A DNA stretch of 57,367 nt, filler included, from Dimargaris cristalligena (GCA_003614675.1; 2 parts of 2 records of this genome joined end to end with filler, not necessarily neighbours in it); one strand, 5' to 3'. Shown: positions 17,133 through 31,633, counted from the first letter of the whole stretch. The notes: generated by a model not told the origin, from the letters alone. Numbers and translations: made by a program.

Positions 17133-20100
17133 GAAGATTCTGACATTCAAATTAATAATCCAGTTGATACACAACTTGATAATGTGGCCCCCTGTGTCCT
17201 TACCTGTACCACCGAGGAGTTCCAAATCCCAGAGTACCTTACGTAATGGATGGAGGAACACCACATCCCACACCTGGCCAACAGCAGCTGGGTTAATTGG
17301 TCTATTCAACAAGGACTGCAGTACCCAACACTAGTCACTAAACTACCACACCTCAACCCTTTTACAGCCATTAAAATGGCACAAACCAACATGGCCACTG
17401 ACAAAACCCTAGTGAAATACCAGTGATACTTTAGACATAACATCCAAGCCATTGGTGACTTAGCACAATCAATTGACAAAAGGGAAGACCCTACATCCAT
17501 CCATAATTGTTTGGCCCACTTGTTTGACTTCCAGCTCAACTTTTTCATGGAGTGTATAACTGAATGCTACCATCAGGCTGCCAGGGCTATTAAACTCCCT
17601 ACCAAACTCTAACAGCAGGTCCCTTTCATTGCGAATGAAGACCAGGACTTCCTCTTTGGTATAGCCATCAAAGAACAGTTGGAACAAGTAAATGCACAAC
17701 AATTCCAACAGCATCTATTAGCCCAAATGGTGTGGGGAAATATGGGATGTTGTGACCATTTTGGAATAGGCAACTGAGGCTATGGCTGCAAATTCAATCC
17801 TGGAAGACAAGACCAAAGTCAACAGCCACCAACTGAAATAACAATGGGGGTCCAACACCAACCCCCTACAGGCAACCAGTAGCCCTTTTAATAGCAAACT
17901 ATGTGATGCCAGTTGACCAGATCCCTCTTGGGGGGGCAACTTAGCTACTTCTACCCCCAATGGAGGAAGATAACCACAGACTGTTGGGTCCTCTTGGTAG
18001 TTCAAAATGGGTACTGATTATAATTCCAGACACCACCTGAACCAGGAGGACATGGAAGCAGTGGACAGAGCCCTGCAGAAACTATTAGCCTGTGGGGCCC
18101 TGGAGGCAGGCCACGAATTAGCCTAACCCTTTGCCTCAAACATGTTTACCAAGCAGGAGGCCTCCCAAAAAACAGCCCTGCTTAGATATATGCCACATTA
18201 ACTAGCTTATTCAACTGGAGCATTTCAAAATAGAGGGATTACTAGTCTTGAGCTCTACCATTCTACCAGGGAATTACATGCCCAAGCTGGACCTAAAGGA
18301 TGCTTACCTGATGATCCCCATCCACCCAAGGTCATGGAAGTACTTAATAGTACAATTCTACCAGTGATTATACTAGTTCCAATGCCTACCATTTGGACTG
18401 AGCAGCTCTCCCCAGGTATTTACCTGGATGATCAAAGCAGCTCTAACACCCCTACACCTATAGGGGATCTGCCTGTCATTTTATCTTGACAATATTTGTG
18501 TACTAGACTGGATAGCTAAGGAAACAAAATGACATATCCAATGGGTATGGCAATATCTGGAGAAACTGGGGTTTCTGTTCAATGACAAGAAATCCATCAT
18601 GATTCCCAGTTAAGTTCAGGAATTCTTGGGATTCAGCCTCAATACACAGGCTATAGCTATTACCCTACCCAAAACAAAGGTACAAATAGTCAAAGAAGAC
18701 AGTCACCTTCTCCTCACCAAAATAGTAACAGCCTGCAAAGCAGTGGCAATTGTGGGGACCATACCCTCTTGCATTCTGGCAATACAGACCAGTCTATTAA
18801 ACACCTGGTACCTTCAATGAGGCATTCACCAAGTGGTACTACAAGGGGGCTAGAATGGACTGTGTCCCATAAATAAAGATACAACAATAGCCCTCCATTG
18901 GTGGAATACTCTACCACCAGATGCCAACAGAAAACCCCTAGGCTTGCCAAAGTCACCTGAGGTAACAGTATTTACTGATGTGTCTGAAAGCAGTTTGGGG
19001 TTTTACTCCAATACTGCTACCACATATGGTCACTGGGACAAAAACAATCAGAACCAATCCAACAACTACCATAAACTGAAGGTGATTCTAATGACCCTGC
19101 AATACCAAAGGATATGTTGGAAGAGCAAGTGCCTCTTAATTTAGTCGGACAATACCACAGCAATCAAGAATGTGAACCAGGAAGGCTCCCCAGCCTATCC
19201 ACACCTTTATCATCTAGCCAAACAGATTCATGGGTACTGCCATCAACACCAGATCAAAATCCGAGTCTAATTTATTACAGGTCTGGAGAATCAGACAGCA
19301 GACATACTCAGTTACCTGAACATTTTGTATCAGGATGAGGAGATACCACAGGCCATTATACCTCTCCTTTGATGCCTGTATGGGTCCATTCACTTAGACC
19401 TCTTTGTGTCCCACAGAAATGCAAAGTGTTGCCACTTTTTTACTCAATTCCCAGAATAAGGAGTGATAAATTTCAATGCTTGGATAATTCCCTGGCCCAA
19501 GACTGGGGGATACGCCTCTCCCCCATGGAAATTGATACCACTGGTCATTCAGAAACTCCACTGAGAACAACTCCATTAACTGATACTAGTGACACCAAAT
19601 TGGCCAAGCCAACCCTGGTTCCCAACACTATTCCCATGTGACAGGGAATCCAATGGTGGTCAAGAAAGTCCACCAGAAGTTCAGATGGTTTGTGTGGCCC
19701 TTATCCGCAACTGGCTGGGGAAAATGGCCATCAAACCCAAAGCTATTGACAACATTATATGCAGTCGGCAGTTGTTAACTTGGAAAACTTATGAATATGC
19801 CTGGCAAAGCTTTGACACTTGGTACCAAACATGAGCATATGATCCAGCCAAGTACAATTATCCTCACCTAATAAATTACTTAGTGGATATGGCCCAAAAC
19901 TGAACCTGGACAACAATCTGTATTCACCAGTCAGTAATTACCTCCACTTGGAAATTATTTTATCCAAACAACCCACCAGTAACTGAAGACCATTTCCTAT
20001 AACAATTCATGCAAGGGGTCCATAAAAAACAACCCTTAGTCCCTAAACCACCAGTTTGGGACGTCAAACAGGTCCTAGATTACTTACAAGGCATGAGGCC

Positions 20101-28778: not shown

Positions 28779-31633
28779 CCTCTTGGAACAGCAAGTCTAT
28801 CACCACCTTTCCCTTTTTATCACCTATCTTTTTGAATAAAGTTCAGTTTTCAAGGATTTGAGTTCAGTTCTTTACACCCAGAATGCCTACCTCACCAAAG
28901 TGGACATCAAGGATACCTATTTAACAGTACCTATCTATATGGATTCCCACAGTTACCTGTCTATCCAATTGGGGGACCAGGTATTCCAGTACCAGTCACT
29001 ACTATTTAGCCGTACTATGGCCCCCCAGGTATTTTTACATATTATAAAAGTGGCCATTGAACCATTATATACCCAGGGGATTGTCCTGTCCTATTACCTG
29101 GACAACATTGCTATTATTTCACCCACTTACTCACAGGCCCAGGCTAATCTGGCCACAATACTCAATCATCTCCAAACTCTGGGATTTCCCATCAACTGGA
29201 AGAAGTCAGTCCTTACTCCAGCCCAGGTCATGGAATTTCTGGGTATGACCATCAATACCCAGTAAATGAAGGTTCTATTACCTCCAAGGAAATGCAAATC
29301 AATTTAGTGGATATGTAGGTACTTGAAAATTAAATCACTACCAGCCCGGAAAGTGGCCTTAGTCCTGGGAATATTAACATTGACCCTACCAGATATTCCG
29401 AATGGATTAATCCATCTGCAGGAATTATAATGGTGCCTCATCAGGCAGAACAAAACCTGGAAAGAATTAAGCATTCTCACTCCAGTGGCAATCCAGGAAC
29501 TCAACAGGGGGTATTACCAGGCCCAGCTCTACATGGGGAAGCTGGTACATCTCCCCAATACAACCACCATAACCATCTATAGCAATGCATTGGACACTGG
29601 GTATGGAATAGTAGCCCCAGGATTAAGTCAAGTGGGGCTCTGGACCCCGGAGAAATAGCTGATGTCCAGCAAATGGAAGGAACTGCAGGTGACCTATTTG
29701 ACCTTAATCCAGTTACCCCCACAGGTCCACCATTAGGCAGTACTATTGAAAACTAACAATACCACTGTCCTGAAATATATCAACTACCAGGGTGGGTCCC
29801 AGGTCCCAGCCCTCCAATTTCTAGCCCTCAAAATCAACAACAAACTAGTGCACTGGAATCTAACACTAATGGGGACCTATATTCTGGGGATAACCAACAC
29901 CGAGGCCAATCAATTGAGTCAGCAGGCACCAGCATGTCACAAAATGCAGCTACCCCGCTGGGTATTCCAGCTGCTTAACCAGTGGTGGGGTCCATTCAAC
30001 ATTGACCTATTTGCCAGTCCCATCAACCACCAGTTGCCCAGGTACTACCACTTATACTATGTGGGGGACAGTTCACTGAGGGACGCGTATCAGTACCCTT
30101 GGCCTTGGGAAAACGGCTATGCCTTTCCACCCTGGAATTAGGTCCACCGAGTAATCAATTGGGTCTACCAGGAAAAGATAACCCTAGCCCTGATAACCCC
30201 ATTTTGGTGGATACAGTCATGGTATCCCCGCCTATTACCAATGATTGTGGACCAACCCCAGGTTATCCGGACTCCCCACCTCCTGCTAATCACTTGGAAG
30301 ATATCCGGAAAATGTTGGTACAGCAGGGTATACCACAGGCAGCTGCCACCAGTATCTGCAATGGGCTCCGGGAAAACACCAATAAGGCCTACCAATATGC
30401 CTGGCAATAATTTGCCCATTGGTATATACAACAGGAAAAGGATCACTGCTACCCTTATTCCATAACATTACTCGATTACTTGTCCGAGTTAATCCAATCT
30501 TCGAGTATTCATATCATCAAGCTTCATAAAGCTGCAATTATTTCCACTTGGGAAACCGGGTACCCGGACTGTGCAGTTTCCAAGCACCGCCATTTAAATC
30601 TTTTCATTTGAAGTTGAAGCTGTAAGGTTATACCCAAAGAAAAACCACCGATTTGGAAGGTAGGGCAACTGGTTGACTATCTTGCCGAACTTCCCAGTAC
30701 CAACGAGTTGCCCTGGTATAAATACAGCCAGAAGGTCGTTGCACTACTGTGGTTATCCACCATGTGGCGCCCCCGGAGTGACTTTGCCCAGGTAACAATT
30801 GATAACATCAAGGTATCTCGCATATCTGGTAAGCCAGATGTCCTAACCATTACCGCCTATTATATTAAAGAAGGCCAGCAAAAGTGCATTACGATTGAGG
30901 CCCTTGAACATAACCATGGGCTATGTCCCATTCGAAATACTCTAGCCTACATTGAGCAATCTCTCCCCTGGCGTTGCCCGGGCCATCGGGCCCTATTTAT
31001 CACCAGAAAGGGTACCAATGCGTCAACGGATACCCTTGGAAACTGGGTGAAGCACCTGCTGGGGGAGGTGAAGATCGATATGGATATATTCTCGGCCCAT
31101 TCCATCTGCGTGGCCTCGGCCACTGCCACCCACCAGCTCGGATTTAGTCAGGATGAAATCGTGGGGGCCACCAACTGGCGGGTCTGGACTACATTTTTGA
31201 ATTATTACAATCGGCCTAGTCCCCATGATAGTGTATCTCGGTCCATCCTAACGAATTATTCCCATGATGAAAGGCATAACTCAGATTAAACGAGCCGGGC
31301 GATGTTTAATTGTCCGGTTATGTCTTTCATCACTGATCCCGCCCGCTTATGGCAATATTATTTTATTATATATATTTATTATCCTACTACTTAGTACTTC
31401 TGGTGATATTTTAGTCTACTTATACTTCTCAAGGGGATTCAACCCTTGGATTCCCTGCCCAAATCAATTTATTCTTTGTGTCTAGTCCAAAAGGGTCTAA
31501 GGCTACCAGTGAGGCAGGCCCGATCCATATATATGGGTATGAGCGCTCATATGGACGAAAAAATTACTAAATAAAGGAGTGCGCGGCCTCAAAAGCCGCC
31601 GTTCCCATGATGAAAGGAATAACCGGACAATTA
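28779..31633 (+). mobile_element. Degenerate DIRS1-type retrotransposon, copy 2 (5' truncated at gap; RT, RNase H, MT-like, YR, 3' terminal repeats)
   Basis: RT KVDIKDTY...YYLDN...GFPINWKKS...EFLGM. RNase H TNNTTVLKYINYQGGS...NTEANQLS. MT-like IDLFAS...YAFPPW. YR MWRPRSD...LCPI...SAHSIC...NW..WTTFLNYYNR. Repeats at 31259-31332 and 31602-31633. Confidence 0.92.
31259..31633. repeat. Direct + inverted repeat array at DIRS copy 2 3' end (ICR/terminal-repeat-like)
   Basis: TTCCCATGATGAAAGG(C/A)ATAAC at 31259-31280 and 31602-31623. 31307-31332 is the reverse complement of 31608-31633 with 2 mismatches in 26. Confidence 0.85.

Follow-up and report, generated by a model that had tools for sequence, protein, structure and literature searches.

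The DNA analysed here, hereafter called the window, is a stretch of 57,367 nucleotides, filler included, from Dimargaris cristalligena (GCA_003614675.1), a mycoparasitic fungus of the early-diverging order Dimargaritales, and consists of two contigs joined by an N-linker. Each contig carries one retrotransposon, element 1 at approximately 16865-20991 and element 2 from 28779 to approximately 31600, and from their coding content both are classed as dead DIRS1-like elements. CpG dinucleotides have been lost from them by C-to-T transitions on both strands, and this loss follows a regional chromatin domain, not the pairing or status of the repeats. It is probably linked to cytosine methylation. 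An earlier reading of the sequence alone (the original prediction) had described two copies of a DIRS element, the first starting at 17133, whose catalytic codons had been hit independently by repeat-targeted CpG hypermutation as part of a methylation-linked or RIP-like (repeat-induced point mutation) defence. The features on which the analysis is based are the following, where o/e denotes the observed over the expected frequency of a dinucleotide.

15871-20800, no strand: CpG-erased domain round element 1, which takes in approximately 900 bp to the left of the left inverted terminal repeat
16865-17042, + strand: left inverted terminal repeat (ITR) of element 1, 178 nt, 88 % alike to 20814-20991, with 1 CpG
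17136-17790, + strand: frame at the gag position of element 1, with 4 in-frame stops, covered by paralogous contigs of approximately 81-85 % identity
18182-19642, + strand: pol of element 1, with reverse transcriptase (RT), RNase H and a Dam-like methyltransferase (MT), 14 in-frame stops and no frameshift
18482-18493, + strand: codons of the YxDD motif of element 1, reading YLDN (GAC AAT)
19700-20632, + strand: tyrosine recombinase (YR) of element 1, with 5 in-frame stops, MWHLHSD at 20165-20185 and HSFH at 20510-20521, 34 % identical to the element 2 YR
20814-20991, - strand: right ITR of element 1, with 6 CpG (o/e 0.67), multicopy and little depleted
22849-25437, + strand: subtilase gene serving as CpG control, with Pfam matches Peptidase_S8 and PA and a CpG o/e of 0.99
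28679-28778, no strand: N-linker of 44 N, 12 bases and 44 N, which cuts element 2; the part of the window to its right has 28589 bp
28846-30240, + strand: pol of element 2 (RT, RNase H, MT), with 6 in-frame stops and YLDN at 29095-29106
30279-31289, + strand: YR of element 2, with 3 internal stops, MWRPRSD at 30762-30782, HSIC at 31098-31109 and a CpG o/e of 0.60
31265-31595, + strand: 3' end of element 2, with a self-complementary hairpin at approximately 31265-31332 and CpG retained (o/e 0.84)

The kilobase 18001-19000 contains 1 CpG (o/e 0.02), as had been estimated by eye, compared with an o/e of 0.8-1.07 in neighbouring gene kilobases. The body of element 1 (17136-20813) has 15 CpG, where base composition predicts 170 (o/e 0.09, Poisson P 3e-53); the corresponding o/e values were 0.78-1.03 in nine host genes and 0.75-0.82 in four CpG-normal intergenic stretches. 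The zone of normal density ends with the CpG at 15870, the following CpG is at 16427, and the o/e of 16001-16864 is 0.10. Element 1 begins at its left ITR near 16865 and the depleted block near 15871, so that both reach further left than the predicted start at 17133. Along element 2 the CpG o/e is 0.10 in the RT-RNase H region, 0.30 in the MT, 0.60 in the YR and 0.84 at the 3' end. The predicted depletion of both elements is thus found throughout the body of element 1, but in element 2 it is strong only in the RT-RNase H region. About 90-96 % of the CpG has been lost from the depleted element parts. The o/e of CA and TG together is 1.32 in element 1 and approximately 1.0 in genes, and element 1 has retained a C before G at 6 of 153 synonymous third positions, compared with 784 of 1266 in genes. 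Specificity for TpCpG was rejected, as the surviving CpG (CCG 14, TCG 10, ACG 9, GCG 7) show no 5'-base preference relative to the proportions in genes (p 0.84, n = 40), although this test is limited by the near-saturation of the loss.

The direction and context of the substitutions were assessed between samples, between the ITR arms, against a protein profile and against a paralog, and in all these comparisons the substitutions were CpG-enriched, as predicted, and polarised as C-to-T or G-to-A on both strands. The contigs of a second sample from another study (X5) carry the orthologous allele, with 41 differences in 17142-20330, compared with the 81-87 % identity of paralogs. Forty of 451 differences were listed, and the 37 in 15851-18366 that are fixed in X5 were used, the 3 further right being excluded; all between-sample counts by context given here refer to the differences listed. 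Sites overlapped by paralogous contigs (mainly 16811-17740) are under-listed, so that ratios between classes can be used, whereas absolute rates are underestimates. Transitions accounted for 36 of the 37 differences (17 at CpA, 6 at CpG, three CA-versus-TG doublets, 4 at CpT and 3 at CpC), leaving 1 transversion. Per available site, changes at CpA were 4.2-fold more frequent than those at CpC/CpT (17/413 versus 7/688, p 0.001), and changes at CpG were about 15-fold more frequent than those at CpA. In the X5 direction, 6 of 26 CpG cytosines and 8 of 413 CpA cytosines had changed, with 6 of the 13 remaining CpG lost in X5. The CA/TG doublets represent single CpG sites resolved oppositely after the samples had split, so the decay continued after their divergence and is recent or ongoing. 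At 18231, X5 has ACA, which makes a Met-to-Ile reading of this site ambiguous. A further run (X6, share 0.20) consisted of five short pieces with no differences listed.

The conserved part of DIRS ITRs is described as strictly complementary at insertion in the available part of PMC3266345. The two ITR arms of element 1 differ at 21 of 178 sites, comprising 13 single transitions, 2 doublets and 4 transversions, and the single transitions consist of 5 simple CpG changes, one CG-to-TA pair, 3 TG-to-TA changes and 3 others. When TpG/CpA sites were reverted to CpG, residues of a profile of 147 homologous sequences were restored at 26 of 170 sites in element 1 and 20 of 161 in element 2, i.e. 8.2 and 6.7 times a baseline simulated from back-translated homologs. 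Reversion to CpA restored 10 of 145 and 8 of 150 (9.5 and 7.4 times baseline), while the ratios to baseline were 2.6 and 3.1 for CpC, 0.3 and 0 for CpT and 2.1 and 1.7 for transversions. The baseline cannot contain the 6 stop codons; once these are left out, CpA reversion restores 12 of 295 sites, with p 0.001 for the two elements pooled when the baseline is doubled, and p 0.07 for element 1 by itself. Seven of the nine single-step differences between element 2 and its same-family paralog P0229 are C-to-T products in element 2 (3 CpG, 3 CpA, 1 CpT), and P0229 keeps Asp, Arg, Gln and Ala at such sites. The original prediction, correct on the CpG transitions, had overlooked this secondary CpA-to-TpA component. 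Cumulative CpA loss was not visible in the composition of the elements, where the TpA o/e was 0.84 and comparison of CpA with CpC/CpT at third positions gave p 0.82, 0.38 and 0.19; part of the TpA may have arisen from CpG by two hits. In genes, too, synonymous third positions are not short of CpA, C being kept at 814 of 1264 CpA-type and 1403 of 2353 CpC/CpT-type sites. The RIP product and substrate indices of element 1 are 0.83 and 1.41, respectively, the usual thresholds for RIP being a product index above 1.1 and a substrate index below 0.9.

The left ITR arm of element 1 has the T/A allele at all 13 single transitions (p 0.0002), or at 15 sites versus 2 when the doublets are included, whereas the right ITR holds its 6 CpG although several paralogous contigs align there in runs X1, X2 and X5. 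The depleted flank to the left of the left ITR differs between samples in the same ways as element 1, and 15800-16801 is covered at a likeness of at least 80 % by one contig per run alone. No 80 % paralog was therefore found for this flank, but paralogs slightly below 80 % would escape and 'single copy' is to be understood as relative. Six-frame Pfam searches of 16001-16864 gave no match. This flank contains a stop-interrupted frame on the + strand which looks like a decayed coding sequence holding the insertion of element 1. Because of the ITR asymmetry, the depleted flank and the undepleted 3' part of element 2, CpG loss is assigned to a regional domain, and the predicted targeting of repeats as such is not upheld. 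A process triggered by pairing should hit both arms, whereas a heritable methylated domain with edges would cover all three patterns. RIP leaks into flanks, and the depleted flank taken alone is thus weak evidence against it.

All the codons quoted in the original prediction were found to be right. The last two residues of YLDN are encoded by GACAAT at 18488-18493 in element 1 and GACAAC at 29101-29106 in element 2. The Arg codons of MWRPRSD in element 2 are CGC and CGG, while MWHLHSD in element 1 has CAC CTG CAT at the corresponding residues, and the Arg of HSxR is His in element 1 (CAT, 20519) and Cys in element 2 (TGC, 31107). Each altered codon is, as had been proposed, one CpG transition away from an Arg, Pro or Asp codon. 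The motif is YxDD in all 147 homologs of a second set (150 matches, of which 3 were removed as short) and in 25 of the 26 homologs of a first set, the remaining one having YxDN. Arg makes up 1.0 % of the element 1 pol compared with a mean of 6.2 % and a minimum of 3.0 % in the 147 homologs, and at 8 of 9 conserved-Arg columns this pol holds Trp, Gln, His, Cys or Tyr; the Arg-to-Tyr changes at 19313 and 29068 require two hits. In the element 2 pol, three residues of the acidic RNase H motifs are Asn. Neither element has lost the first Asp of the RT or the Tyr and His of the recombinase, and element 2 also retains MWRPRSD. Given a loss of 90-95 % of CpG, half of it to CpA, the probability that both YxDD motifs end as YxDN is about 0.2. 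The broken active sites are expected by-products of the approximately 90 % loss of CpG, and selective targeting of catalytic codons, as originally proposed, was rejected. Codons for catalytic Asp and Arg are lost through their overlap with CpG, and Arg encoded by CGY is lost whichever way the CpG resolves. The independence of the hits in the two families is real but unsurprising.

DIRS1-like elements are defined by the order gag, pol (RT, RNase H, MT) and YR and by ITRs (PMC3783388 and PMC3266345, as far as the available parts of these papers go). Element 1 has a pol with RT, RNase H and Dam-like MT, a YR open reading frame 3' of pol, and ITRs, and motifs of the HSxR type and the terminal Tyr are present in both recombinases. 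Pfam searches of its pol gave RVT_1 (E 8.6e-12) and Dam (E 0.007, under the cut-off), and the top homologs, aligned over the full length at 25-36 % identity, are DIRS-type pol proteins, several of which carry PF05869. The frame at 17136-17790, for which a Pfam search gave no match, is taken as a putative gag from its position only. No convincing local match to the termini, of the kind expected for an internal complementary region, was found inside element 1; paralogous contigs connect 16811-16850 with 20664-20673, as such a region would. The outer end of the ITR (20980-21010) forms an imperfect hairpin, present also in paralogous contigs, one arm of which carries a CpG hit in the window.

Element 2 comprises the 3' two thirds of its element, the left end being missing at the contig break. 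Its YR matched Phage_integrase (E 0.008, under the cut-off), and 31559-31595 at its 3' end is a 37-nt match to the right repeat of element 1. Physical linkage of the two elements was rejected, as the N-linker lies between separate contigs. Only 137 of 450 aligned pol residues (30 %) and 102 of 299 YR residues (34 %) are identical, and on this divergence elements 1 and 2 are assigned to different families instead of being, as first described, copies of one. Since the families differ and are on separate contigs, the hits are independent, as had been proposed for this CpG-linked C-to-T decay. The D. cristalligena gene model P0228 is identical to the element 2 pol across 82 residues. Gene predictors called P0228 and P0229 as spliced 'hypothetical proteins' over dead elements, skipping the stop-containing parts. 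The closest recombinase to the element 2 YR, at 52 %, is P0073 of Dispira simplex, which reads MWCPRSD and shows changes of the Arg-to-Cys, -Gln, -His and -Trp types, suggesting that CpG decay may be order-wide in Dimargaritales. Among 1.84 billion representatives searched with a profile, no pol exceeded 36 % identity and no intact member of either family was found. When metagenome contigs were searched for DNA encoding relatives of the recombinase, none of 152 pattern matches was confirmed; Rfam gave 0 matches.

The pattern is probably the result of 5-methylcytosine (5mC)-linked decay acting on CpG far more than on CpA, through DNMT1-type methylation of repeat domains, a low level of CpA methylation and unrepaired deamination. 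Both elements would lie wholly or partly inside cytosine-methylated chromatin domains, across which a DNMT1-type enzyme would methylate CpG and, at a far lower level, CpA. Deamination with poor repair would then keep turning methylated cytosines into T on both strands, and the outcome would be an almost complete exhaustion of CpG, partial loss of CpA and small loss of CpC/CpT. The supplement of PMC10538959 lists DNMT1, UHRF1 and HELLS for both Linderina and Coemansia, but neither DNMT4/RID nor DNMT5; Dim2 is listed as undetected in Linderina, and the Coemansia Dim2 entry bears a Conidiobolus-type accession and is doubtful. The available text of PMC11258239 describes 5mC as nearly confined to repeats in Phycomyces and Linderina. 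Several observations weigh against this explanation. The 4.2-fold CpA excess, with 1 transversion among the 37 listed differences, is too skewed for passive CpG deamination alone, and the explanation therefore needs the added assumption of CpA methylation. Divergence between the samples was 1.65-fold higher in the domain (67/4498) than in the right flank with its gene (46/5080), the right-flank spectrum lying outside the differences listed, and the accessible part of PMC13297926 describes 5mC as scarce in early-diverging fungi. The secondary CpA-to-TpA loss is the only part of the pattern left unexplained. TpG can stand in for a hemimethylated CpG and thereby attract methylation to the CpA on the other strand.

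An enzyme-driven vegetative C-to-T mutator acting in silenced domains, on CpG first and faster than passive deamination, would account for the CpA excess, which is seen between samples, in the ITR arms and in profile reversion, three data sets that are independent in part: the ITR arms have 3 TG-to-TA changes and 1 CG-to-TA among their 21 differences, 3 of the 7 element-2-derived changes relative to P0229 are at CpA, and about half of the remaining CpG was lost between samples against 1 transversion. A precedent is the CpA mutator of Zymoseptoria tritici, which depends on Dim2, but according to the available text more than 98 % of the transitions there are at CA and not CG (PMC8016269), whereas CpG dominates approximately 10-fold here, and Dim2 is undetected in Linderina in the supplement cited above. 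As the cumulative CpA loss is also modest (CA+TG and TpA o/e of 1.32 and 0.84, third-position odds not significant), and some TpA may come from CpG hit twice, such a mutator is considered rather unlikely. Still less likely is a combination of methylation-linked CpG decay with a genome-wide mutation bias at CpA unrelated to repeats. The divergence of the flank (0.9 %, compared with 1.3-2.4 % in the domain) would be in its favour, but genes lack the CpA deficit at synonymous third positions, and all 3 TG-to-TA changes between the ITRs are on the arm inside the domain. Classical RIP, the RID-dependent, pairing-triggered, premeiotic mutation of duplicated DNA, is very unlikely, although the spectrum of transitions with a CpA component resembles it and a RIP-index signal is reported, with stated caveats, for the Zoopagomycota fungus Zoophthora radicans (Entomophthorales) in the available part of PMC11105155. 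The closely linked 178-bp inverted pair was hit on one arm alone, the depletion extends over DNA without an 80 % paralog, and 10 of the listed CpA changes between samples are in 17741-18366, where there is no such paralog. The indices of element 1 are on the non-RIP side and CpG dominates. D. cristalligena was scored 'no_rip' in supplement file 12 of PMC12543289, by an enriched-k-mer screen that is blind to CpG loss, and the PMC10538959 supplement has RID/DNMT4 undetected in Linderina or Coemansia. Of the predicted methylation-linked or RIP-like defence, the former half thus fits better. That the families are natively CpG-poor with a native YLDN is scarcely credible. One YxDN homolog was found among 26, and no intact relative closer than 36 % was found; but the second homolog set is uniformly YxDD, the pols contain 14 and 6 in-frame stops, P0229 retains ancestral residues, and the right ITR and the element 2 YR keep CpG. 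The original prediction that these traits are acquired therefore holds, though no intact member of either family was found.

Comparison with known systems was made from the available parts of the papers cited. CpG-directed decay of fungal transposons has been tied to DNMT1/Masc2 enzymes (Amselem et al. 2015, PMC4352252), and passive deamination in Agaricomycotina has been discussed by Horns et al. (2012, PMC3318451). The DNMT1/Masc2 type of decay is similar in its C-to-T changes at CpG on both strands, in repeats and their surroundings with genes spared, but here the loss is near-saturated (approximately 90-96 %) and has the secondary CpA component, and Zoopagomycota are not among the genomes treated in the available parts of those papers. 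In Tuber melanosporum (Amselem et al. 2015, Table 2) CpG is likewise predominant and CpA secondary, but that species has RID-like and Dim-2 genes, unlike the listed Kickxellomycotina relatives with DNMT1 and without RID. CG 5mC restricted to repeats has been mapped in two early-diverging fungi, Phycomyces blakesleeanus and Linderina pennispora (Lax et al. 2024, PMC11258239), and Linderina belongs to the same subphylum; methylation maps are given there and a mutational scar alone is present here, and Dimargaris is unnamed in the main text. The Dim2 mutator of Z. tritici (Moeller et al. 2021, PMC8016269) shares an asexual excess of C-to-T changes in methylated repeats, with CpA above CpC/CpT, but spares the CpG that is the main target here. 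The TpCpG hypermutation of Pucciniomycotina and rusts (Horns et al. 2012) is CpG-centred and affects repeats, but has a 5'-T preference that was not seen among the survivors here, within the limits of saturation. Gene order and ITRs are like those of the DIRS1-like elements of early-diverging fungi (Muszewska et al. 2013, PMC3783388; Piednoel et al. 2011, PMC3266345), already reported in Kickxellomycotina (Coemansia); the difference is that both elements here are dead and have no intact pol relative above 36 %. No literature on CpG loss or methylation in Dimargaritales was found in a search that left out most subscription papers, so that absence is unproven.

Several other sites of the window are CpG-poor. 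A second CpG-free island of approximately 1.4 kb at 4890-6307 (o/e 0.06 over 4801-6400) adjoins a copy of a sequence resembling a miniature inverted-repeat transposable element (MITE); its TpA o/e of 1.11 and RIP product index of 1.18 are above those of the DIRS elements, and six-frame Pfam searches gave no match. The MITE-like element is 144 bp long with short terminal inverted repeats and occurs in four copies (1912-2055, 6474-6617, 8295-8438 and 55271-55414), which are 72-86 % alike and contain 1-3 CpG each. The family is too diverged to polarise (12 CpA, 9 CpC, 8 CpT, 20 transversions and 11 multi-state columns) and gave no CpA signal. Moderate CpG depletion was found at 1-2100 and 32001-32700 (o/e 0.36 and 0.38), neither of which has a Pfam match. 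For the four CpG-poor stretches outside the elements, none of the 24 six-frame translations matched Pfam. An open frame at 27740-28678, outside element 2, has a Pro/Ser-rich tail reaching the contig break, a CpG o/e of 0.91 and no Pfam match. Ordinary host genes are located in 10140-15391, 22849-25437, 36041-38546 and 51269-57009, including those for a C2-domain protein, the subtilase and an SDF2-like MIR protein, for which an atlas search returned the family alone. Others, judged by their motifs, presumably encode a CDK-type kinase, a Rieske protein, a Rab GTPase and a prohibitin.

CpG decay itself is known in other fungi. For Dimargaritales the window adds a polarised ITR asymmetry, a two-sample spectrum and a protein-level test. 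The mutational record makes it very probable that CpG in the repeat domains of a Dimargaritales fungus is methylated, and heavily enough to inactivate transposons permanently. The group is often described as rich in N6-methyladenine and poor in 5mC, and RIP screens based on AT-rich k-mers miss CpG decay. The allele pair of the two samples and the two ITR arms are a ready polarised test set. It is conceivable, though doubtful, that Dimargaritales have a homology-independent, domain-bound C-to-T mutator which acts on CpG first and CpA second, outpaces passive deamination and needs neither RID nor DIM-2; a DNMT1 that would also methylate or deaminate CpA opposite TpG could be one example. If so, a RIP-like and irreversible form of genome defence would exist outside Dikarya and be scored as absent by current RIP indices, and an enzymatic, RID-free CpA component would bear on the origin of RIP.

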